Notes: generated from the sequence alone by a model not told the origin. 64,000 bases of DNA from Acidimicrobiales bacterium (GCA_965216655.1 CBDCGP010000005.1:83329-147328), one strand, 5' to 3'. Numbered from the stretch's first letter, positions 18,096 to 30,044 are shown. A program made the numbers and translations.

Positions 18096-18607
18096 CCGAC
18101 GAAACCGACGGGACCGACACCGTGGTTCGGACCGTGATCGGAAACCCGAATCCCGGCGGTCGCACCACCACCATCGGCGAGGCGGTGGCCGACGCCGTGG
18201 CCGATCTGATCGGCGGCAGTCGGGCCGACACCATCGAGCTGGCCGAGATCGGCCCCCACCTCTTCGAGTGGGGCAACGAGGACGTCAAGGCCCTCACGGA
18301 GGAGGTGGCGTCGAGCACGGTCAACGTGTTCGCCTGTCCCACTTACAAGGCGACCTACACCGGGCTGTTGAAGGCGTTCCTCGACAACTACAGCAACGAC
18401 GGATTGGCCGGCACGATCGCCGTGCCGGTGATGGTCGGCGCCACCCCCCGCCACGCGCTGGCCCCCGAGGTGCACCTGAGGCCGCTCCTCGTTGAGCTGG
18501 GAGCCTCGGTGCCCACTCGGGGGCTCTACGTTCTCGATTCGGAAATGGACGGACTGGGCGCCACGGTCGAGGCGTGGATCCAGGGTGTCGACGGTCAGCT
18601 CGGCTGA
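18092..18607 (+). CDS. NAD(P)H-dependent FMN reductase
   Basis: ATGA overlap with the monooxygenase gene. 171 aa with flavodoxin-like fold motifs (PNPGGRTT, CPTYKATYTGLLKAFLD). Confidence 0.7.
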   Translation: MTDETDGTDTVVRTVIGNPNPGGRTTTIGEAVADAVADLIGGSRADTIELAEIGPHLFEWGNEDVKALTEEVASSTVNVFACPTYKATYTGLLKAFLDNYSNDGLAGTIAVPVMVGATPRHALAPEVHLRPLLVELGASVPTRGLYVLDSEMDGLGATVEAWIQGVDGQLG

Positions 18608-18625
18608 TCGCCGATCACACGGATC

Positions 18626-18883
18626 TCACTCGTCGACCTCCTCCTCACCCTCCTCGATCTCCTCCTCGACCTGGTCCTCCGCCTCATCGAGTTCGGCGTC
18701 GGCCTCATCGAGTTCCTCTTCCAGCTGATCGACGCCTTCATCGATGGTCTCGTCGATCTCGCCGATCTCCTCGTCGAGTTCGGCTCCGTCGCCGTCTTCG
18801 TCCTCGGCGCAGGCGGCCAGTCCGCCCATGCCGACAGCCATGACGGCAGCGGTCAAGAATCCGGCAAATCGTTGTGATCGCAC
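18626..18883 (-). CDS. Small lipoprotein with an extremely acidic tail
   Basis: 85 aa. It has a signal peptide with lipobox (GGLAAC), followed by about 60 residues that are almost entirely D/E/L/I/G. Confidence 0.5.
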   Translation of the reverse strand: MRSQRFAGFLTAAVMAVGMGGLAACAEDEDGDGAELDEEIGEIDETIDEGVDQLEEELDEADAELDEAEDQVEEEIEEGEEEVDE

Positions 18884-18968
18884 GTCAACTCCTCACTGTT
18901 GATGGTTTGCCGTCTCGACGCGTACCCGGCTCCGTCCGACGTCAAACCACCGATCAGGACCGCCGTCA

Positions 18969-19637
18969 CTACCCGTGCGACAGGTTCGTCCAGGCCTCGA
19001 GGATGCGGTCGGCCATCAAACGGTGTTCGCGGGCGATGCCCCGAAGCTCCCGGTTCTCGGTTCGACCGCCGATCGCCACCGCGCCGAACCGGTTACCCCG
19101 GAAGTAGGGCCACAGGTGATCCGGCTGGAAGAACCGGTCCAGGTCGCCCGGAACGTCGATTCCGGTGGGACCGCCGTCGGGCGGTTCGGCCAGGGCGGGA
19201 AGATCCAGCGCTTCGAGCGCCTCGATGACGTCGTCGTCGTGGGTCCGGTCGGCGAAGTCGCGGCCCCGGTAGCCGAAGGCCTCGTTGCCGCCCGGGTCGA
19301 TGACGAGCAGTGCCGGCAATGCGATACCGCCCCGTTCCTCGGGATCGAACAGGCCGAGCGGTTGCAGAAGGGTCTCACCACCGGGATCACTCACATAGCG
19401 GACGTGAGGCGTCGGCCACCGGGCGAACATGCCGGCCTGGCGAACCTCGTCGTCGACGCTGACCGCGATGACCTCGGCCCCGGCCGCGTGAATCCGCTCA
19501 CTGATGGATGCCAGCCGCACGAGCTGGCCGCAGCAATACGGTCACCAGTCACCCCGGTACGTCATCAGCAGCACCGCGCCACTGCCTCGACGTAGGTTCA
19601 ACACATCGTGACGGGCGGTGCTCTCTGATTCGTGCAT
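18969..19637 (-). CDS. Redoxin/peroxiredoxin-like (AhpC-TSA fold) selenoprotein, with in-frame UGA (Sec) at 19544-19542
   Basis: My own reverse-complement of 19501-19640 reads MHESESTARHDVLNLRRGSGAVLLMTYRGDW-TGA-PYCCGQLVRLASISERI. This continues into the 18969-19520 ORF. The UGA sits exactly where the W-C-P-x-C redox cysteine is expected. Confidence 0.75.
19510..19528 (-). promoter_or_regulatory. Candidate bacterial SECIS hairpin for the redoxin UGA
   Basis: The mRNA reads UGA, then 13 nt, then GCCAGC-UCGUGCG-GCUGGC. That is a 6-bp stem with a GU-containing loop about 19 nt after the UGA. Confidence 0.4.
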
Positions 19638-19705
19638 CGCCGAACCGTAGCATCGGCCCGTGCCGGGCCGGTTATCGGGGGGCGTTCGCCACTACCAAGT
19701 CGCGG

Positions 19706-21538
19706 TCAATCCGCTTCGTGGCGGACGGCCCGCTCGGCCGGGCCGATGGTGACATCGCACAGCGTGGCGGCGCTGCCGACGATCCCGATGTGGGAGAAGG
19801 CCTGCGGAAAGTTGCCGAGCTGGCGTCGGGCGCCGGGATCGTACTCCTCGGCCAGCAGGCCAACGTCGTTTCGCAGATCGAGAAGGTGCTCGTAGAGTTG
19901 CCGGGCCTGATCGCGACGGCCGGAGAGCGCCAGGGCATCGACCATCCAGAAGCTGCAGAGCAGGAACGTGCCCTCCTCGCCTCCGACGCCGTCGTCGGAG
20001 CGATCGGTGGCGTAGCGATGGACCAGTCCGTCGGTGGTCAGTTCACGCTGGATGGCTTCGACGGTGGCCGTGACGCGGCGATCGGACGGGGGCAGGAAGC
20101 CGACCACCGGAACGAGCAGGGCCGATGCGTCGAGTACGTCGGAACCGTAGGTCTGGATGAAGACGCCATCGGCGTTCACACCGTTGGCACACACCGTTTC
20201 GTGGATCTCGGCGGCGGTTCGTCGCCATCGGTCGGCGTCACCGGGAAGGCCGCCCTGGTCGATGGTCCGGGCGGCACGATCGAAGGCCACCCACGCCATG
20301 ACCTGGGAGTAGGTGTGCCGGGCGGGCTCGCCCCGAGCCTCCCAGATGCCGTCGTCGGGTCGATTCCAGTTGCCCTCGAGCCAGTCCAGCATGGCCAGTT
20401 GCAGCTGCCAGGCGTTCTCGTCGGGTTCCATCCCGGCCTCACGGGCAAGATGCAGGGTTTCGGCCACCTCGCCGTAGACATCGATCTGTAGCTGATCCCA
20501 GGCGCCGTTGCCAGTGCGGACCGGCCGGGAGCCGGCATAGCCGCTCAGCCAATCGAGCTCGATCTCGGGAAGGCGGCGCTCACCGGTCAGTCCGTACATG
20601 ATCTGAACCCGTCCCGGGTCGCCGGCGATCGCCCGCAGGAGCCAGTCCCGCCACGCGGTTGCCTCCTCGGTGCAGCCCGAGGTGAGCATGGCTCCGAGGG
20701 TGAAGGCGGCGTCCCGCAGCCAGCAGTAGCGGTAGTCCCAGTTGCGCGTGCCGCCGATCCACTCCGGCAGTGATGTGGTCGGTGCGGCGACGAATCCTCC
20801 CGAGGGACGGTGCGACAGTCCCTTGAGCGTCACGAGCGAGGACCGGACGTCGTCGGCGTAGGCTCCCGTATAGGAGATTCTCGCCGCCCAGTCCTGCCAC
20901 CATCGGGTGGCGGCCTCCAGTAGATCGGCGGCGCTGCCGGCCGGTGGGGGCTCGTCGGCCGCTCGATACCAGGTCATCAAGAAGCCGACCCGGTCCCCTG
21001 CGCCGACCGTGAACTCGGCGACGGTCGACATGTCGTCGGGGTGCATGTCGACGTCGGACGTCAGGGTCATGGCGTCGGGGCCGCCGACGGCCAAGATCCC
21101 GCCGTCGATGCGACGGACCCAGGGCACGATGCTGCCGTAGTCGAAGCGGATCCGCAGTTCCGATCTCATGGGAACTTCACCACTGCGACCTTCGACGATT
21201 CGGACGAGCCGATGGGGCTCGGCGTCGTCGTCGGAGACGGTCAGGGCGTCGAAGACGCGGACCGTTCCCGACTCCGTGTTGTGTTCGGTGCACAGCACGA
21301 GTGAGTCCTCGAGATACCACCGGTTGGTTCGGACCCGGTCACCGTTGGCCGCCGGTCCGAGGCTCCAGTGACCGCTGTCATCACCGCCGACGAGACGGGC
21401 GAAGCAGGCCGGCGAGTCGAATCGGGGAAAACACAGCCAGTCGACCGATCCAGCCGACGACACGAGTGCACCGGAGCGGCAGTCGCTGAGGTACGCATAG
21501 TCCTCGATCGGGGGCTGTCGGAACGCAGAGCCGCTCAT
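19706..21538 (-). CDS. Glycoside hydrolase family 15 protein (glucoamylase/trehalase-like), cytoplasmic
   Basis: 610 aa. The N-terminus IEDYAYLSDCRSGALVSSAGSVDWLCFPRFDSP is typical of actinobacterial GH15. It also contains WDYRYCWLRDA. Confidence 0.85.
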   Translation of the reverse strand: MSGSAFRQPPIEDYAYLSDCRSGALVSSAGSVDWLCFPRFDSPACFARLVGGDDSGHWSLGPAANGDRVRTNRWYLEDSLVLCTEHNTESGTVRVFDALTVSDDDAEPHRLVRIVEGRSGEVPMRSELRIRFDYGSIVPWVRRIDGGILAVGGPDAMTLTSDVDMHPDDMSTVAEFTVGAGDRVGFLMTWYRAADEPPPAGSAADLLEAATRWWQDWAARISYTGAYADDVRSSLVTLKGLSHRPSGGFVAAPTTSLPEWIGGTRNWDYRYCWLRDAAFTLGAMLTSGCTEEATAWRDWLLRAIAGDPGRVQIMYGLTGERRLPEIELDWLSGYAGSRPVRTGNGAWDQLQIDVYGEVAETLHLAREAGMEPDENAWQLQLAMLDWLEGNWNRPDDGIWEARGEPARHTYSQVMAWVAFDRAARTIDQGGLPGDADRWRRTAAEIHETVCANGVNADGVFIQTYGSDVLDASALLVPVVGFLPPSDRRVTATVEAIQRELTTDGLVHRYATDRSDDGVGGEEGTFLLCSFWMVDALALSGRRDQARQLYEHLLDLRNDVGLLAEEYDPGARRQLGNFPQAFSHIGIVGSAATLCDVTIGPAERAVRHEAD

Positions 21539-21566
21539 TACTGGCTGTCCATGGTGACCCCACCCA

Positions 21567-23072
21567 TTATGGCGTCCGATACCGGGGGCGAAACGCCAGG
21601 AGTGATTCGCCGAGACCTCCGGGTCGGCTGGAGCCGAGCCAGGCGGCGGCCTGGGCGTGGCGGACGGCCTCCACCTCGTCGGCGCCTACCGCCTCGCCAC
21701 GCAGATGGCGGAGCGCGAGCATGGCGGCGCTGCACGCCGCGGTCAGCTCGGCGGCGATGATGCGCCCCCGTTCGGTGGCGGGGCTGAGCTCGGGCCAGCG
21801 ACGGTTGGCGTCGGTCAACACTTCCATCGCCGCTCGGACCGCCTCGTCGTCGAGGTCGCCGACCACGGGGAACAGCACGTCGAAGACGGCGGCGCCCAGC
21901 GGTGTGCCGTTGGCCGTCCACGCACCGAGGTTCTCGCCAAGGTGTCCAACGCGGTCGAGCAGTGCACCGAATCCCGGCCGGGCACCGAGGAGATCGTCCA
22001 CGATCGAACCCACGTCGAGCCTGTTCTCACCGGGGCCGAGAACCGCGGCACCGTGCCACGCGGCGTGGGCGGCCCGGACGATCGACGGCACCGACACCAC
22101 CAATGGTTGCCAGTGACCGTGGTCGCCCCAGTCACAGAGCATCATCGCACGGGCGCCACGTCGGGTGCCGACCGCCACCGCGTCGGCGATGTTGGCCGCG
22201 GCGTTGGCGTTGCGACCGATCAACGTGGCCCACGACGAGGTTCCGGCCGCCACCCGGAACGGCACCGCGGCATCGACCAGCAGTCGAACATGGGCCTCGA
22301 ACCCGTCAGCGGCGTCGTCGGGCAACCCGAGACGGTCCTCGAACGCGGCCGGCAGCAGACCTCGCCAGCTGCGGCCCGGAGCCTCGTAGTTCCAGCCAAC
22401 GACGGTCACCCCGTCGGGCACCCACTCCACCGCCTCGGCATCCCGGCGGAACTGGTCACCCCAGATCATCACCTCGAGGCCGTCGGCCACCAGCGGTTCG
22501 ATGATGCGCCGGAGATGTGCTCGATAGACGACGCCTCGGCCGAGACGGTCGACTTGCGCCCGGGATCGGCCAAGGCCCAACTCGAACGGTTCGTCGCCGC
22601 CGATCATGACGCGACCGGCGCCGGTAGCCTCGACCAGCCGGCGGGCCAGGCCAATGGCGAAGTCGGCGTTGTCGGCCGTCGGCGCCAGACACGACGGCGG
22701 AGCTGTGCCATCGCCCACCAGCGAGGGATATCCATCGGGACACTCGGCCCGATCCCGGTACCGATCATGGGCCAGCCATCGCTCCATGTGCCCGAAGCAG
22801 TTGAGGCTGGGGACCAGCTCGATACCGGCGTCGGCCGCCCGCCGCCGGAGCCAGGCCATGTCGTCGCCGGTGAGGGCCGATGCGTCGGCCCACACGGTCT
22901 CGTGCCCGGGGTGGGCAAAGGTGTGTTCGATGTAGAGGTGAAGTTCGGTGTAGCGCAGGCGGCCCAGGAGATCGATGAGCCAACCGAGCGTGTCGAGGGT
23001 CGGTACCCGATCCCTCGACACGTCGAGCTGGAATGCCCGCCGGGTCAGGACCGGATCACCGTTGAAGTCCAT
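21567..23072 (-). CDS. GH20-like (beta-N-acetylhexosaminidase catalytic-domain family) protein, no signal peptide
   Basis: 501 aa. It contains RAFQLDVSRD, YTELHLYIEHTF, VPSLNCFGHM and the adjacent D-E pair in MIGGDEPFE. The start lies 15 nt after the selD stop. Confidence 0.7.
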   Translation of the reverse strand: MDFNGDPVLTRRAFQLDVSRDRVPTLDTLGWLIDLLGRLRYTELHLYIEHTFAHPGHETVWADASALTGDDMAWLRRRAADAGIELVPSLNCFGHMERWLAHDRYRDRAECPDGYPSLVGDGTAPPSCLAPTADNADFAIGLARRLVEATGAGRVMIGGDEPFELGLGRSRAQVDRLGRGVVYRAHLRRIIEPLVADGLEVMIWGDQFRRDAEAVEWVPDGVTVVGWNYEAPGRSWRGLLPAAFEDRLGLPDDAADGFEAHVRLLVDAAVPFRVAAGTSSWATLIGRNANAAANIADAVAVGTRRGARAMMLCDWGDHGHWQPLVVSVPSIVRAAHAAWHGAAVLGPGENRLDVGSIVDDLLGARPGFGALLDRVGHLGENLGAWTANGTPLGAAVFDVLFPVVGDLDDEAVRAAMEVLTDANRRWPELSPATERGRIIAAELTAACSAAMLALRHLRGEAVGADEVEAVRHAQAAAWLGSSRPGGLGESLLAFRPRYRTP

Positions 23073-23087
23073 CGGGGCCGGATGCCG

Positions 23088-24131
23088 TCAGGCCAGTTTG
23101 AACAACGGTTCGCCTTCAGAGATCGAGCCGATCCTGGCCGCCGTGTGGCCACTGTCGGCCAAAGCCCCCAGCACCGACTCGGTTTCACCGGGGTCGACGC
23201 CGAACACCAGCCCGCCCGAGGTCTGGGCATCGGCGATCAACAGCTGCGATCGCTCGTCGTGGGAGCCGGGGTCGAGCAGCTCAGCACCCCACGCCAGGTT
23301 GCGCCGGCTGCCTCCCGGCACCATACCTTCGGCCGCCAGATCGGCGGCCCCGGGCAGGAACGGAACGGCGTCGAACTCGACCGTCACCCGGACCTGGGAC
23401 TCCACGGCCATCCGCCCGAGGTGGCCGAGCAGGCCGAACCCGGTGACGTCGGTGCAGCCGGTCGCCCCGGCCTCGACGGCCACCCGGGAGGCGACGTCGT
23501 TGATCCGGGTCATCGAGGCGATGGCCGCCTCGGCCACCTCCGCCGGCGCGACATCGGCCTTGATGGCGGTGGTGATGACGCCGACACCGAGTGGTTTGGT
23601 CAGGATCAGATCCTGGCCCGGCTGAAGGCCGGCGTTGGTGAGGATCCGATCGGGGTGGACCTCCCCGGTGACCGACATGCCGTACTTGGGTTCCGGGTCG
23701 TCGATGGTGTGACCGCCCACGATGGCGAACCCGGCGGCGGTGGCGATGTCCTGGCCGCCGGCGAGGAGTTCACCGAGGAGCGAGGTGGGGAGCGCGTCGG
23801 TGTTCCAGCCCACCAGGTTCAGCGCGAACAGGGGGCGGCCACCCATGGCGTAGACGTCGGAGACGCTGTTGGCCGCGGCCACCCGGCCCCACGTGCGAGC
23901 GTCGTCGACGACGGGGGTGATGAAATCGGCGGTCGAGATGAGGGCCCGGTTGTCGTCCAGTTTCCAGACGGCGGCGTCGTCACCGGTGTCGGTGCCGACC
24001 AGGAGTTCGGCCGGTTGGTCGGGGTGCAGGTCGCGCACGACGTGCGCGAGCTCGCCGGGGGCGAGCTTGCAGCCTCAACCGGCGCCGTGGCTGAACTGGG
24101 TGAGACGGTGGGTCACGTGTTCGTCGGTCAC
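23088..24131 (-). CDS. selD: Selenophosphate synthetase (SelD/SenC), Sec-containing, with in-frame UGA at 24077-24075
   Basis: The track ORF (23088-24038) is clearly SelD (GTDTGDDAAVW, AANSVSDVYAMGG). Extending upstream in frame gives VTDEHVTHRLTQFSHGAG-TGA-GCKLAPGELAHVVRDLH. This equals the E. coli LTQYSHGAGCGCKI loop with Sec in place of Cys17. GTG start at 24131. Confidence 0.9.
24033..24067 (-). promoter_or_regulatory. Candidate SECIS region for the selD UGA (two adjacent hairpins)
   Basis: The mRNA downstream of the UGA carries AGCUCGCC-ccc-GGCGAGCU (24067-24049) and GCGCAC-guc-GUGCGC (24047-24033). Confidence 0.4.
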
Positions 24132-24172
24132 AGCATTCAGGCTAGCCAGGCCGGCACTGGTACGGTTTTTCC

Positions 24173-25471
24173 ATGGCACTGGAGACCTGGGTCGACAGCG
24201 ACGATCTTGCCGAGTGGGTGCAGGACGCCACCGAGTATCTGATCGGAACCGTGGCCGATTTCGACCACGACGACGAGCGCTGGATGGGCCCGTATCTGCC
24301 GATAGTCAACCCGCCCATCTGGGAGCTGGCCCATGTCGGCTGGTTCGCCGAGTGGTTCGTGCTCCGCCAGTTGCACGGTCGCGATCCGCTCATGGAGAAC
24401 GTCGACGAACGCTACGACTCGGCGTTGGTGGCCCACAAGACCCGATGGCAGCTCGACTACCCCGACTCGGCCCGCACCATCGACTACGTCCGCCGGGTGG
24501 CCGACGGGTTGGTCGACGTCGTCGGCAACGACGGCGGCCTCGACTCCACCGCCTACTACGTCGCCTACGCCGTCATGCATCACGACGCCCATTGCGAGGC
24601 GCTCACCTACACCCGCCAGACCCTCGATTGGGGGCCACGCCCCGGCGGCTCCGCGTCTGAACCGGTCACCGGGGAACCGATCTCCGGCGATCGACGGGTG
24701 GGCGGCGGTCGGGTCCTCCTCGGGGCGTCCCGGAAGCAGCCCTTCGTCATGGACAACGAGAAGTGGGCCCACCCGGTGCAGGTCGACGAGTTCGATCTGG
24801 CTGTCGCCCCGGTCACCGTGGCCGATTTCGCAGCCTTCGTCGACGACGGCGGTTATGGCAACGACACCGTGTGGTCACCCGACGGCCTGACCTGGCGCCA
24901 TGATACCGGCGCCACCGAACCGGCGTACTGGCGCCGTGGCGCCGATGGCTGGGAACGCCGCATCGGTGCCGACTGGCAGCCGATCGCCGACACCGCCGAC
25001 CATCCGATGGTGCACGTCAGCTGGTGGGAGGCCGAGGCCTGGTGCACCTGGGCCGGGCGGCGGCTGCCCACCGAGGCCGAGTGGGAGGCGGCCGCCACCA
25101 CCACGCCGTCGGGCGAACGGCTTCCCTGGTTCCCGTGGGGCGGACGGGATCCGCTCCCCTCCGAGGCGGCGCTCGACGGCCGGACCGGCGGCACCGTACC
25201 GGTCGGAGCCTTCGGAGCCGGCGACGGTCCGTGGGGCCACCGGCAGCTCATCGGCAACGTCTGGGAGTGGACGGCCACCACGTTCGGCCCGTATCCCCAC
25301 TTCGAGCCCGACGCCTACCGCGACAACTCCGAGCCGTGGTTCGGCACCCGCAAGGTGCTGCGGGGCGGATCGTGGGCCACCCGCAACCGCTACGTGCGGT
25401 CGACCTACCGCAACTACTTCACCCCTGACCGGCGCGACGTCTACGCCGGATTCCGCACCTGCCCACGGTGA
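24173..25471 (+). CDS. senA: EgtB-like DinB_2 + FGE-sulfatase-domain C-S/C-Se bond-forming enzyme; SenA-type (selenoneine synthase) by context
   Basis: 432 aa. The N-terminal DinB-like part has WELAHVGWFAEWF and VMHHDAHCEAL. The C-terminal FGE part has HPMVHVSWWEAEAWCTWAGRRLPTEAEWE, GNVWEWT and RGGSW. It is divergent from selD and followed by a GT-B gene. No egtA/C/D neighbours. Confidence 0.7.
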   Translation: MALETWVDSDDLAEWVQDATEYLIGTVADFDHDDERWMGPYLPIVNPPIWELAHVGWFAEWFVLRQLHGRDPLMENVDERYDSALVAHKTRWQLDYPDSARTIDYVRRVADGLVDVVGNDGGLDSTAYYVAYAVMHHDAHCEALTYTRQTLDWGPRPGGSASEPVTGEPISGDRRVGGGRVLLGASRKQPFVMDNEKWAHPVQVDEFDLAVAPVTVADFAAFVDDGGYGNDTVWSPDGLTWRHDTGATEPAYWRRGADGWERRIGADWQPIADTADHPMVHVSWWEAEAWCTWAGRRLPTEAEWEAAATTTPSGERLPWFPWGGRDPLPSEAALDGRTGGTVPVGAFGAGDGPWGHRQLIGNVWEWTATTFGPYPHFEPDAYRDNSEPWFGTRKVLRGGSWATRNRYVRSTYRNYFTPDRRDVYAGFRTCPR

Positions 25472-25508
25472 CCACCAGCCGGCCCGTTCGCCCGGCGGTC
25501 GCAGTGAC

Positions 25509-26511
25509 GTGAGCGGTCGCTCCATCGTCATCGCCGCCCCGATCCGGCCGACGGCCCGGTCGGGCAACGACGTGACCGCCGGTCGTTGGGCTGATCATCT
25601 CGAGCGGCTCGGCCACCACGTCACGGTCGTGGCGGCCGACGAGCAGGCCGACCGGCCCGACGAGGAGACGGCTGCGCTGCTCGACGCCGCCGACATGCTG
25701 ATCGCCATCCATGCCCGGCGGTCCGCTCCGGTCATTGCCTGGTGGGCCGACCGGCATCCGGACCGACCGGTCGTCGTCGCCCTCAGCGGAACCGACCTCT
25801 ACGGTGATTTGCCGACCAGCGATGGCGCAGTGGCCTCGGTGGAGCGCGCCTCGGCACTCATCGTGCTCCAGCGGGCGGCGGCGGAGCGAGTGGCCGGCCT
25901 GAGGGCCGAGTGGGGTGACAAGACCACGGTGATCCATCAGTCGGTGGCGCCGCCGTTGCCGCCCCGCCGACCGGCGGACGACGAGCTCAGGGTCGTGGTG
26001 CTGGCCCATCTCCGGTCGGTCAAGGACCCGCTGTTGACGGCAAGGGCGGCCCGACACCTCGACCCGGCGAGCCGGGTCACCGTCCACCACGCGGGACAGG
26101 CCTTCGACCGGCGATGGGAGGAGGAGGCGATCGAGGAGCAGGCCGCCAACCCCCGCTACCACTGGCACCGCGAACTCGACCGGGACGCCGCACTCGAACT
26201 GCTCGCCACCGGTCGCGCCCTGGCCTGCACGTCGCTGACCGAGGGAGGCGCCAACGTCGTCACCGAAGCCATTGGCCCTCGGCGTGCCCGTCATCGGCAC
26301 CCGGATCGACGGCAACACCGGGTTGCTGGGTCATGACTACCCCGGGCTGATACCGGTCCGCGATGTGGAGGCCATGGCCGACCTGCTGCGTCGCCTCGAA
26401 ACCGATCCCCTGCTGTTGGCCGAGCTGCAGCGCCGCACCAATGAGCTGAAACCCATCACCGACCCGGCCGCCGAGCGGGCCGGTCTGGCCGCGGTGCTCG
26501 CCTCCCTCTGA
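25509..26511 (+). CDS. senB: GT-B glycosyltransferase, SenB-type (selenosugar synthase) by context; split by a 1-nt frameshift near 26275 as assembled
   Basis: GTG 25509 lies 38 nt after senA. Frame 1 reads up to ...TEGGANVVTEAI. Frame 2 (26272 ORF) continues ALGVPVIGTRIDGNTGLLG, restoring the canonical GT-B motif E-A-x-A-x-G-x-P-V. Removing one G (26274-75) or one C (26276-78) repairs the frame. Confidence 0.65.
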
Positions 26512-28233
26512 TCAGCGGATGGATCGGCGAATCGCGGCCGACGCGAAATCGACGGCCACGGTGACCACGAACAGCGCCACGATGGTGGCCAGAATGCCGT
26601 CGTAGTTGAACGACGCCGTCTGTTCGTCGAGGCGGCGGCCGAGGCCGGCGGCGCCGACGACGCCCACGATGACCGTCTCCCGGATCGCCACCTCCCACCG
26701 GTAGAGACCGAGGGCGACGAACCGTCCGGCCACCGCAGGCACGGTGGCCAGTGTGAACGACCCGGCGGCGGTGGCCCCGGTGGCGGCCAGGATCCGGGCC
26801 GGGCGTTGGTCATGGTTCTCCAGCACCTCGCCTTGGAGCCGACCCAGCACGCCTGTGTTGTAGACCGCCAGCGCCACGGCCCCGGGCCACAGTCCGGGAA
26901 ACAGCACGAAGACCGTGATGAAGGCCCACACCGGCGGCGGCACCGAGCGGGCCACGAGCAGGACGAACCGGACGATGGCGGCCAGTGCGCTGCGGACCGC
27001 CGCCCCCACACCGGACGCCGCCCGGCGGGGGCGTTGGGCGACGAAGGCCACAGGAGACGCCATGGCGAAAGCCAGGCCGATCGACAGGATGGCCAAGGCG
27101 ATGGTGTCGAGCGAGTCGTCGACGAGTTCCCGCAAACCGCCCGCGCCGATCTCGGGAGGCCAGCTGTCCTCAACCAGTTCGCCGGCCAGCAGCCGGGCCC
27201 GGTCGTCCCACAACGTCGAGACGTCGATGCCGAGCCGCCAGTAGGCGATCGGCAGCGAAACGGTGAGCAGCAGCGCGCTGAAGCGCAGGAACCGGTCGTT
27301 GTTCGGACGGCCGTTGGTCCGGGTGGTCCGCGTGGCCGGGGAGGCCAGGCTGGAGCCGGTGGTCTCGGCCACCGAAACGTGGGTCTCGGCGGCCAGGGCG
27401 TTGCGCCGCCGCCGGACCGCCGATGACCAACGGTCGGCGATACCGGACAGGATGATGAGCGCCCACAGCAGGGTCCACATCTCGTCATAGCGCAGCGATT
27501 GGAATGAGAGCGCCAGCTGGAATCCGAGTCCGCCGGCCCCGACGATCCCGAGCACGGCGGCGCTGCGAAGGCTGCACTCGAAGCGGTAGAACGCGTACGA
27601 GAGCAGGTCGCTCAGCGCCTGGGGGATGGTGGCGAAGGTGAGGGCGACGACCCGGCCGGCACCGGCGGCTCGCATGGAACGCTCGGCGTCACCGGACACC
27701 TCGTCGATCAGTTCGGCGAAGACCTTGGCGGTGACCGCGCCGAACGGGATGCCGATGGCCAGCACGGCGACAAGGGGGTTGAGACCGAGGATGTTGACGA
27801 GGATCAGTCCGAACACGACCTCGTGCATCGAGCGGGGGATGACCATCAGGGTCCGGCCGACCATCCAGCCGAGCCGACCACGGCCCATCGTGCCGTGGAT
27901 CGGCGTCCAGATCCGTTCGGTGAGCAGCGGGCCGAACACCATGCCGATGGCCACGGCCAGCGCGGTGCCCAGGAGCGCATAGCCCACCGTCACCGCCGAC
28001 TCCCGCAGGGTCAGCTCCAGCATTTCGGCGCTGAGGTCGGGGCGGACCATGGCGGCGAAGAAGGCGGTGACCTGCGACCAGCCCCGTTCGTTGATCAGCT
28101 CGGAGGGATCGGCGCCGGCCTTGGCCACCGACCAGGCCACCAGTCCGGCGACGACGGCCGCCCACCATCGCCGGTCCCGCCGCACCGGGCGCTGCGCGAT
28201 GACGACCGGGCGACGTTCGAGAACGGTCGTCAC
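26512..28233 (-). CDS. phnE: Phosphonate-type ABC transporter permease (fused double PhnE)
   Basis: 573 aa, made of two PhnE-like halves. It is convergent and abutting senB. GTGA-type overlap with phnC. Confidence 0.85.
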   Translation of the reverse strand: MTTVLERRPVVIAQRPVRRDRRWWAAVVAGLVAWSVAKAGADPSELINERGWSQVTAFFAAMVRPDLSAEMLELTLRESAVTVGYALLGTALAVAIGMVFGPLLTERIWTPIHGTMGRGRLGWMVGRTLMVIPRSMHEVVFGLILVNILGLNPLVAVLAIGIPFGAVTAKVFAELIDEVSGDAERSMRAAGAGRVVALTFATIPQALSDLLSYAFYRFECSLRSAAVLGIVGAGGLGFQLALSFQSLRYDEMWTLLWALIILSGIADRWSSAVRRRRNALAAETHVSVAETTGSSLASPATRTTRTNGRPNNDRFLRFSALLLTVSLPIAYWRLGIDVSTLWDDRARLLAGELVEDSWPPEIGAGGLRELVDDSLDTIALAILSIGLAFAMASPVAFVAQRPRRAASGVGAAVRSALAAIVRFVLLVARSVPPPVWAFITVFVLFPGLWPGAVALAVYNTGVLGRLQGEVLENHDQRPARILAATGATAAGSFTLATVPAVAGRFVALGLYRWEVAIRETVIVGVVGAAGLGRRLDEQTASFNYDGILATIVALFVVTVAVDFASAAIRRSIR

Positions 28234-28988
28234 GCCGGAGTGGGCTGGTCGAGCAGGTAGAGCTCGGTCAGCATCGCCTCGTCGACCTCGGCCGCCGGCA
28301 GATCGAAGTGCAGCCGGCCGTCACGGAGGGCGACGATGCGGTCGCAATGCCGGAGGGCCAGGGGGGCGTCGTGCATGCTGGCGACCATCCCCCGCCCGGC
28401 TTGTCGGGCCATGCGGGCCAGCACCGTCATCACCGCGTCGGACCGGGAGGGGTCGAGCGCACTGACCGGTTCGTCGGCCAGCAACAGGTCGGGCTCCTGG
28501 AACAGGGCGCGGGCGATGGCCGTCCGCTGTTGCTGGCCGCCGGAGAGTTGGTCGGCCCGCTCCCACAGCTTCTCGGCGATGCCGACGGAGTCGAGCGCGG
28601 CCGAGATCTCGTCGATCGGGGTGGGGCGGACGAGAGCCCGAGCGGCTCTGGCCCACGACCAGCGTCCCAACCGGCCGGCGGCCACGTTGCTCGCCACCCG
28701 CAGCGGCCCGACGAGCGCGAAGTCCTGGCTGATCAGCCCGATCCGGCTGCGATGGTGGCGGTGGGATCGACGGCCGAGCGCGGTGCTGTCCACGCCGAGC
28801 ACCTCGACCCGCCCGGCGCTGGGCAGCACGAGCCCGGCGGCCAGCGACAACACGGTTGACTTGCCGGCGCCCGACGGGCCGACCAGCGCGACCAGCTCAC
28901 CGGCGGCGACCGACAGCGTGAGCCCGTCGACCGCCGCCGGGTCGGAACCGGGATACTGCACGGTGACGTCGTCGAACCGGACGAGCAC
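28230..28988 (-). CDS. phnC: Phosphonate-type ABC transporter ATP-binding protein
   Basis: 252 aa. It has Walker A (GPSGAGKST), the signature LSGGQQQR, Walker B (LLLADEP) and a PhnC-like insert region. Confidence 0.9.
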
Positions 28989-28995
28989 GTTTTTC

Positions 28996-30044
28996 TCAGC
29001 CCTCGATGCTGCCGATCTCCCGGCCGACGGCCTCGATGCTGGCGTAATTGTCGTTGCTGGTCTCGATGAACGACCCGGCGCCGAAGAATTCGAGGATCTC
29101 GGCCTCTTCGGGATTGGACGGATCGAGCGAGGTGAAGGCCTCGATGACCGACGTCGTCAGATCGTCACCGAGCTCGGGGCGGGCCACCCAGTGGTAGTCG
29201 AAGTAGGTCGGGGTCTCGAAGATGACCTGAACCTTCTCGAGGTTGACCTCACCGGCTTCGACCCGGGCGTCCCACACCTGCGAATTGAGGGCACCGACCT
29301 CGAAGGTTCCGGCCTCGACCAGTTCGATGGTGGCGTCATGGGAGCCGCTGAACCCGGGCTCCCCGTCGAGGTCGTCGAGGCTGACCCCGGCGTCGCTGAG
29401 GAACGACTGGGGCATGAGCCGTCCGGATGTGCTCGACTCCGAGCCGAACGTCAGTGTGCGACCGGCGATGGCGCTCAAACCGGCCACGTCGTCGAATGGG
29501 TTCGATGCCGGTGTCGGTGCCGGCGATGAACACCGAGGTGAACTCCTCGTCGATGTCACGCTGGGCGATGGCATCAGCGCCGTCGACCTGCAGCCGAGCC
29601 TGAACACCGGTGAGCCCGCCGAACCAGACGAGGTCGAGATCGCCGACCCGGAAGGCGGTGACGGCGGCGTCGTACTCGGTGACCGGCTCGAAGCGAACCT
29701 CGACCCCCGGTCTCGGCGGCCAGGTAGTCGGCCACCAGCTGGTAGTTGCGGGCCAGGACCTCGGGGTCCTGATCGGGGATGGCCCCGATAACCAGCTCGC
29801 CGTCGAAGTCACCGGCGTCTTCGGCGGCGTCGCCGGCCTCGTCGCTTTCATCGGCTGCGTCGTCGGTTGTTTCTTCCGAGGTGTCGTCGGCGTCGGCGTC
29901 GTCAGCCGCTTCGGTGGTATCCGACGCTGCGGTGGTCTCGGATGACTCGCCGGCCTCGGTCGAGTCGTCGTCGGAGCCACAGGCTGCGGCCAGGAATGCC
30001 AACAGCACGAGGGGAACGAGAAAACGAAGATTGATGTGGCGCAT
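28996..30044 (-). pseudogene. phnD: PhnD-type periplasmic binding lipoprotein, interrupted by two 1-nt frameshifts as assembled
   Basis: Three collinear frames. Frame A: MRHINLRF..LAAACGSDDD..GELVIGAIPDQDPEVLARNYQLVADYLAAETG. Frame B: VEVRFEPVTEYDAAVTAFRVGDLDLVWFGGLTGVQA...[11 protein letters not shown]. Frame C: [25 protein letters not shown]...[11 protein letters not shown]. The shifts are at the C5 run 29704-29708 and the GGG run 29498-29500. Confidence 0.75.

Follow-up and report, generated by a model that had tools for sequence, protein, structure and literature searches.

A probable selenocysteine-containing Prx-like redoxin gene of Acidimicrobiales, shortened at its in-frame UGA by automatic annotation

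Peroxiredoxin-like (Prx-like) selenoproteins with a UxxC motif, in which U is selenocysteine (Sec), were reportedly described by Kryukov and Gladyshev in 2004 and by Zhang et al. in 2005 and 2008. The thioredoxin-like UxxC of these proteins stands in place of the TxxC or TxxU of true peroxiredoxins (PMC1088965), and a 2026 review still counts a 'Prx-like thiol:disulfide oxidoreductase, PF00578, UxxC' among high-confidence predictions (PMC13188914). One motif found among the GOS 'Prx-like 1' sequences is ...FYRGHW-U-PYCRRQLV... (PMC2398784 supplement). Here, we analyzed a redoxin gene on the minus strand of a 64,000-nucleotide stretch of DNA from an Acidimicrobiales bacterium (GCA_965216655.1 CBDCGP010000005.1:83329-147328), hereafter the window, and concluded from sequence comparison that it is very probably a genuine Sec-decoding gene for a Prx-like selenoprotein of 222 amino acids. 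Its features, in window coordinates, are as follows.

18969..19637, minus strand: full coding sequence of the predicted Sec-containing Prx-like protein; 222 codons, start ATG at 19637, Sec codon 32, stop TAG at 18971-18969.
19542..19544, minus strand: UGA predicted to be read as selenocysteine U32 in YRGDW-U-PYCC; TGA in 79/79 assessable loci, Cys or Ser in distant homologues.
19510..19528, minus strand: hairpin resembling a bacterial selenocysteine insertion sequence (SECIS); stem 19528-19522 with 19516-19510, apical loop CGUGC at 19521-19517.
19197..19637, minus strand: Prx/BCP-type thioredoxin-fold domain, residues ~1-147, with U32-x-x-C35-C36, invariant R28 and P108, and GRDFADR.
18972..19196, minus strand: C-terminal extension of ~75 amino acids, a Pro/Gly-rich linker followed by two long helices.

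The redoxin shares with Prx-like 1 (the 'Prx-like thiol:disulfide oxidoreductase' of PF00578, related to CDD cd02970 PRX_like2) the PF00578 domain, UxxC, a short N-terminus without a signal peptide, and the local motif [YH]RG.W-U-P-Y-C..QLV. The GOS Prx-like 1 read JCVI_READ_286511 was 41% identical to it over 49 amino acids (E = 3e-10), a likeness limited to the active-site half of the domain. The redoxin appears from its sequence to represent a new clade (Acidimicrobiales/Ilumatobacteraceae) of the known Prx-like UxxC selenoproteins. Compared with Prx-like 1, this clade adds a third Cys (U-P-Y-C-C), the GRDFADR motif and the two-helix domain of ~75 amino acids, and these additions, together with its occurrence in Acidimicrobiales and its virtually all-Sec composition, are the markers of the clade; GOS Prx-like 1, in contrast, comprises 225 Sec and 2,740 Cys forms. 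The strings RGDWU, UPYCC and RDFADR were absent from the part of the GOS selenoprotein dataset that was searched. We found no prior description of the clade, whose public entries are shortened fragments.

The minus strand from 19637 to 18969 forms one 222-codon frame whose sole interruption is the TGA at 19544-19542, within the motif YRGDW-U-PYCC. Read on this strand, the gene runs ATG(19637)...GGT GAC TGG TGA CCG TAT TGC TGC GGC CAG CTC GTG CGG CTG GCA and closes with the TAG; its translation, MHESESTARHDVLNLRRGSGAVLLMTYRGDW*PYCCGQLVRLASISERI..., agrees with the text given in a preliminary description of this DNA, which had proposed a Sec-encoding gene missed by annotation. The frame, the motif and the position of the UGA were all borne out, and the TGA recurred in every assessable related locus. 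The start codon is tentative: GTG or TTG at codons 12 and 13 are in-frame alternatives, and any N-terminal extension is capped by an in-frame stop 20 codons 5' of the ATG. A scan of 18500-20000 for promoters and terminators found none. In a mechanical list of open reading frames (ORFs), the gene begins at GTG 19520 and encodes 183 amino acids, and public protein entries are cut at the same point. A protein search with the redoxin retrieved 443 relatives; among the best 120 clusters, 119 were ~180 amino acids long and covered ~82% of the query, and they therefore begin just past the UGA. The lone exception among these clusters was P0111, of 232 amino acids.

The conservation of the UGA and its flanks was assessed in a scan of one genome per GTDB species, in which 114 loci encoded a relative of the redoxin and 80 were kept for comparison. 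According to their labels, most of these records are metagenome-assembled genomes of Acidimicrobiales, Ilumatobacteraceae or Ilumatobacter. In all 80 loci, tblastn matches crossed the stop into the N-terminal segment, spanning query residues ~1-13 to ~216-222. Of the 79 assessable loci, all 79 had the TGA at exactly this codon, within RGDW*P[YF]C; the 80th ends at a contig edge. A codon alignment of 79 sequences showed amino-acid conservation over the 20 codons that precede the UGA (R-16, R-4, G-3, D-2 and W-1 in 79/79 each) together with free variation of synonymous codons in this segment (entropy 1.0-1.9 bits), which is the signature of translation in the redoxin frame. Thus, the upstream segment is conserved as protein in relatives, a check that the preliminary description had proposed. 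In several relatives, in-frame stops hold the N-terminus to 22-31 residues before the Sec. Three typical members of the family (L050, L056 and L058) lie on metagenome-assembled genomes labelled Gammaproteobacteria, Chloroflexia and Propionibacteriales, probably because the contigs were mis-binned.

An exhaustive HMMER search with P0111 recovered full-length two-domain relatives of 30-45% identity. Among 16 of these more distant homologues, 12 had Cys in the Sec column and 4 had Ser. Examples with Cys are P0122 (WCPFCC, with the codon TGT), P0138 (WCPYC), P0139, P0144 and P0152; the alignment of Cys homologues with the UGA column, suggested earlier as a check, thus gave the expected residue. 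The second Cys, R28, G29 and Q38 were nearly invariant in this alignment. The close relatives of the redoxin yielded a single Ser form, P0111, and none with Cys. Ser at the Sec/Cys column (S-P-x-C-C) was seen in P0111 (L081:299-997), P0121, P0145 and P0154, and such SxxC proteins may either be inactive or rely on the second or third Cys. The Ser codon of P0111, AGC, is two changes away from TGA and probably arose via TGC. The Cys-type gene for P0122 (L082:318-1830) is flanked by a DUF302 gene and, in convergent orientation, by an OsmC-family gene; no such redox-stress context was seen around the Sec forms.

The hairpin downstream of the UGA has arms GCCAGCU and GGCUGGC; 13 nucleotides (nt) separate the UGA from the stem, and 20 nt separate it from the loop. 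To compare it across species, the 60 nt following the UGA were aligned in 80 sequences without gaps, and pairs and loop positions are numbered here by alignment column. RNAalifold and explicit counting of pairs both placed the stem in columns 17/18-23 with 29-34/35 and the loop in columns 24-28. Pairing reached 95.8% over the seven pairs, and the six core pairs were formed in all 80 sequences (100%). Three pairs showed double changes: 21:31 changed from GC to AU six times (and from GC to GU nine times), 22:30 from CG to UA once, and the outer pair 17:35 from GC to CG twice. The observed covariation score was reached by none of 500 column shuffles, and sliding the 3' arm by 1-3 nt lowered pairing from 95.8% to 9-47%. 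The loop occurred as CGUGC, CGUGA or GGUUC, in all of which G25 and U26 are invariant.

Codon choice across the hairpin was also restricted. Codon entropy at positions +6 to +10 was 0.29-0.70 bits, versus a mean of 1.51 for 65 other four- and six-fold degenerate codons with conserved amino acids. Leu +7 was CTC in 74/78 sequences; Val +8 was GTG in 75/79, whereas GTC is dominant elsewhere; and Arg +9 was CGG in 56/63, whereas Arg elsewhere in the redoxin gene is mostly CGC. The codons favoured at +7 to +9 are those needed by the stem. In the Ser variant P0111, a synonymous change of CTG to CTC breaks C19:G33, a pair present in all 80 Sec forms. The SECIS candidate with a GU-containing loop 13 nt past the UGA that had been noted earlier is therefore supported by covariation, by the invariant G and U, and by the suppression of synonymous variation. 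Consensus figures for bacterial SECIS elements are said to have been given by Zhang and Gladyshev (Bioinformatics, 2005). The geometry seen here, with 20 nt from UGA to loop, a small apical loop and invariant G and U, fits the bacterial consensus.

The fold of the product was examined by profile searches in which U was written as C. The redoxin matched AhpC-TSA (PF00578) at 6.6e-13 over residues 20-117 (49.1 bits, cutoff 26) and Redoxin (PF08534) at 7.6e-10 (39.2 bits, cutoff 26.6), in agreement with the fold assigned in the preliminary description. An AlphaFold2 model of the homologue P0111, built with 70 aligned relatives (mean pLDDT 87.8, pTM 0.85), showed a beta-alpha-beta thioredoxin/Prx fold to about residue 147, with the Sec-equivalent residue directly before the first long helix (33-44). 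When this model was compared with the PDB by Foldseek, PrxQ/BCP structures were the best matches (TM ~0.65-0.74 normalised to the target, over ~133 columns), and the structural matches covered the ~133-154 N-terminal columns only. At the sequence level, phmmer against PDB sequences placed W-U-P-Y-C on the WCxxC of DsbE, ResA and tryparedoxin, with the Sec on the N-terminal nucleophilic Cys (E = 0.002-0.1), and the family profile gave far stronger matches, at 1e-25 to 1e-22, to BCP/AhpE and further peroxiredoxins.

In the profile alignment to solved peroxiredoxins, the Sec was matched to the Thr/Ser of PxxxTxxC and Cys35 to the peroxidatic Cys, while Arg28 took the place of the Prx Pro and the invariant Pro108 that of the catalytic Arg. 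A canonical peroxiredoxin with Sec as the peroxidatic residue was thus ruled out: Pro is replaced by Arg28, Thr by Sec32 and Arg by Pro108, and only the peroxidatic Cys position is kept. With neither the Pro nor the Arg of peroxiredoxins retained, the Prx/BCP scaffold carries a thioredoxin-like UxxC site. The UGA had earlier been assigned to the peroxidatic, or nucleophilic, first position; the peroxidatic part of this assignment does not hold, and the nucleophilic first position of a C-x-x-C does. The third Cys, C36, was conserved in 76 of 79 sequences.

These alignments also define how the redoxin relates to other described proteins. With the BCP/PrxQ and AhpE peroxiredoxins (2cx3, 2ywn, 4xih, 5iiz) it shares the overall fold and has Cys35 at the peroxidatic Cys position, but three of the four Prx catalytic residues are changed, and the C-terminal helical domain is unmatched in these structures. 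The conserved Pro of the redoxin, which occupies the Prx Arg position, would by analogy correspond to the cis-Pro of the thioredoxin fold. The similarity to TlpA/ResA/DsbE and tryparedoxin is weak, although their WCxxC aligns with W-U-P-Y-C and the Sec with the N-terminal Cys. ResA and DsbE are extracytoplasmic, whereas the redoxin N-terminus, MHESESTARHDVLNLRRGSG, as read directly from the sequence, has no hydrophobic segment, signal peptide or membrane anchor; membership of the TlpA/ResA/DsbE class was rejected on this ground despite the aligned motif. The SelL-related redox protein NF040769 has a Prx-like2-type fold with its redox motif at the same place and matched residues 17-85 weakly; at 22.9 bits against a cutoff of 120, the redoxin is not a member of that family.

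The extra C-terminal domain, estimated at about 80 amino acids in the preliminary description, is a conserved extension of ~75 amino acids. Its conserved residues are Y178, F179, G181, N182, R192, E204, H205 and W216, and it is also present in the Cys-type distant homologues. In the P0111 model it forms two helices (183-201 and 207-231) with pLDDT >90, preceded by the Pro/Gly-rich linker at lower confidence. It had no match in Pfam or NCBIfam and no counterpart among the PDB structural matches.

From these features we infer how Sec would be inserted and which chemistry and substrates the protein might support. Translation would begin at about 19637 and yield a cytoplasmic product of 222 amino acids, with SelB and Sec-tRNA(Sec) binding the hairpin and inserting Sec at codon 32. 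The active site would then lie where the first helix of a Prx/BCP-shaped thioredoxin fold begins, and would comprise U32-P-Y-C35 with C36 directly after it. The U32 selenolate would attack an oxidised substrate, for which a disulfide, a peroxide or a sulfenic/selenenic species are candidates; a selenenylsulfide between U32 and C35 would form and be re-reduced by a cellular thiol system, and C36 and the helical domain might modulate resolution or partner binding.

The window also contains selD, which the preliminary description had placed upstream of the redoxin and co-directional with it, and which was seen at 23088..~24131 on the minus strand, 3.5 kb away. This gene, its neighbours and the genes lying between it and the redoxin are as follows.

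19706-21538, minus strand: GH15/trehalase-like gene, between the redoxin and selD; UGA stop at 19706-19708.
21567-23072, minus strand: gene for a 501-amino-acid protein with a sub-threshold match to GH20 (beta-N-acetylhexosaminidase), E = 0.003; no NCBIfam family.
23088..24131, minus strand: selD/senC, predicted to contain Sec (TIGR00476, 1e-102); start at 24131 or 24116, tentative.
24173-25471, plus strand: senA (NF041186, 449 bits, cutoff 420), divergent from selD.
Within 24900-26336, plus strand: senB-like glycosyltransferase gene (TIGR04348, 220 bits, below the cutoff of 300).
26512-28988, minus strand: PhnC/PhnE-type ABC transporter genes, adjoining the sen genes.
28996-29607, minus strand: gene for an ABC substrate-binding protein, 'putative selenate' (TIGR04553, 197 bits, below the cutoff of 250).

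The selD gene has its own TGA at 24077-24075, in SHGAG-U-GCK, which is the canonical catalytic Cys/Sec17 position, and ORF calling cuts it to 316 amino acids. The best 120 SelD clusters in the database were all 313-318 amino acids long and covered ~91% of the full-length query, and they are therefore cut at the same UGA; locus L083 carries the same TGA. UGA at the catalytic Cys of selD is thus the rule in this lineage, as judged from the best 120 SelD clusters and L083. Two hairpins lie 3' of the selD UGA, the second with a GUC loop ~33 nt downstream. The arrangement of senA, senB and selD at 23088-29607 is the published sen cluster layout (bioRxiv 10.1101/2022.04.13.486033), in which the role of SenC would here be filled by the Sec-containing SelD. 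For the redoxin, the value of the nearby selD is as evidence that the organism decodes Sec. In the same class, Acidimicrobiia, all Actinomarina genomes are reported to carry selA, selB, selC and a Sec-type selD (bioRxiv 10.64898/2026.04.03.716425).

We regard the redoxin as a Sec gene because the UGA, the upstream codons and the hairpin are conserved, because Cys homologues exist, and because selD has a UGA of its own. Several observations weigh against this interpretation. The hairpin is short, and its single-sequence fold was no better than that of shuffled GC-rich sequence (z = -0.61, with 52/200 shuffles at least as stable); the single-sequence stability being unremarkable, the case for the hairpin rests on the cross-species comparison. 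An Rfam search over 18800-24300 at E <= 1 gave no match; to our knowledge, bacterial SECIS elements are not modelled in Rfam. The conserved peptide QLVRL could account for part of the conservation of the hairpin, although the synonymous usage fitted to the stem indicates that peptide conservation is not the whole explanation. No tRNA-Sec, nor any other tRNA, was found in the window, and none of the 60 related loci scanned contained a tRNA-Sec. A crude motif scan of the six-frame translation of the window, which is a weak test, revealed no signature of selA or selB. Thus, the complete Sec machinery of the source genome was not seen in the material scanned, namely the 64-kb window and the related loci. 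These points bear on the possibility that the UGA is read through by near-cognate insertion of Trp or Cys, or belongs to a reassigned code, with the hairpin acting as a generic stimulator; apart from selD, no Sec machinery was seen, and a small hairpin would suit such a role. However, Cys at the UGA column of distant homologues is the classic Sec/Cys signature, the hairpin fits the bacterial SECIS geometry, and the selD of the same genome has its UGA exactly at the Cys/Sec17 position. Moreover, UGA terminates ordinary genes of the window, and the code is therefore not reassigned. We consider non-Sec read-through very unlikely.

That same use of UGA, as at the end of the GH15 gene, agrees with a true stop, the model adopted in all automatic annotations, according to which the real gene is the 183-amino-acid ORF from GTG 19520 and the upstream similarity is a decayed remnant. 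In a remnant, however, purifying selection at the protein level would not persist over 20 upstream codons in 79 species, nor would the TGA stay invariant in 79/79 loci. The 183-amino-acid product would also be missing the initial beta strand of the fold and its entire redox motif, and full-length Cys and Ser homologues exist, so that this model seems to us extremely improbable. A further proposal accepts the Sec codon and concerns function: the redoxin might be an accessory of the senA/senB/selD cluster, for example in reducing hercynyl-SeGlcNAc selenoxide or in handling selenide. It is co-directional with selD and lies 3.5 kb downstream of it, senA, the senB-like gene and the putative selenate transporter adjoin selD, and a selenoxide intermediate of the pathway is either reduced or converts spontaneously (bioRxiv 10.1101/2022.04.13.486033). 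When ten window proteins were compared by tblastn with the 80 redoxin loci, however, only the redoxin itself was found, with no selD, senB, GH15 or GH20-like gene within 8 kb, and clustering of neighbouring ORFs gave no family common to more than ~15 of 79 loci. The closest relative of this selD (87% identity) has its genes in the same transporter-senB-senA/selD order, with the redoxin, GH15 and GH20-like genes all missing from the cluster. The proximity of the redoxin to the selD/sen island is not conserved in relatives, and a functional operon with selD was therefore rejected; the link between the two genes that the preliminary description had implied is not supported, and we give an accessory role in the sen pathway little credence.

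As a very probable Sec-decoding gene, the redoxin reveals a systematic annotation error. At least 79 species-level genomes and over 100 protein clusters hold it as a fragment of ~180 amino acids without its active site, deposited as a 'hypothetical' or 'peroxiredoxin family' protein, and the selD of the lineage is cut likewise. Taken together, the redoxin and selD indicate Sec decoding of UGA in Acidimicrobiales (Ilumatobacteraceae) that are abundant in water and soil. The finding leaves the known kinds of selenoprotein and the mechanism of Sec insertion unchanged; it corrects the annotation on solid grounds and provides a marker for Sec use in the lineage, and is not surprising. With nearly all members using Sec, the clade is a convenient natural system in which to study what Cys cannot do, and Sec can, in a CxxC-type site. 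A stronger proposal would make the U-P-Y-C-C two-domain protein a distinct, obligately Sec-dependent family that marks selenium use across Ilumatobacteraceae/Acidimicrobiales, in a phylum where Sec use is considered sparse, with the third Cys and the helices giving it a specific substrate that Cys cannot serve, perhaps tied here to selenium or selenoneine metabolism; we think this unlikely.

Two further observations concern the genes around the redoxin. The presence of a hexosaminidase-like gene beside a pathway that produces SeGlcNAc is suggestive; the closest sen cluster, at L083, is without the GH15 and GH20-like genes. Directly 3' of the redoxin, an 85-amino-acid ORF (18626-18883, minus strand), which has no family match and is not kept beside the redoxin at other loci, combines a lipoprotein-like N-terminus (...GGLAAC) with an extremely acidic, Asp/Glu-rich tail.

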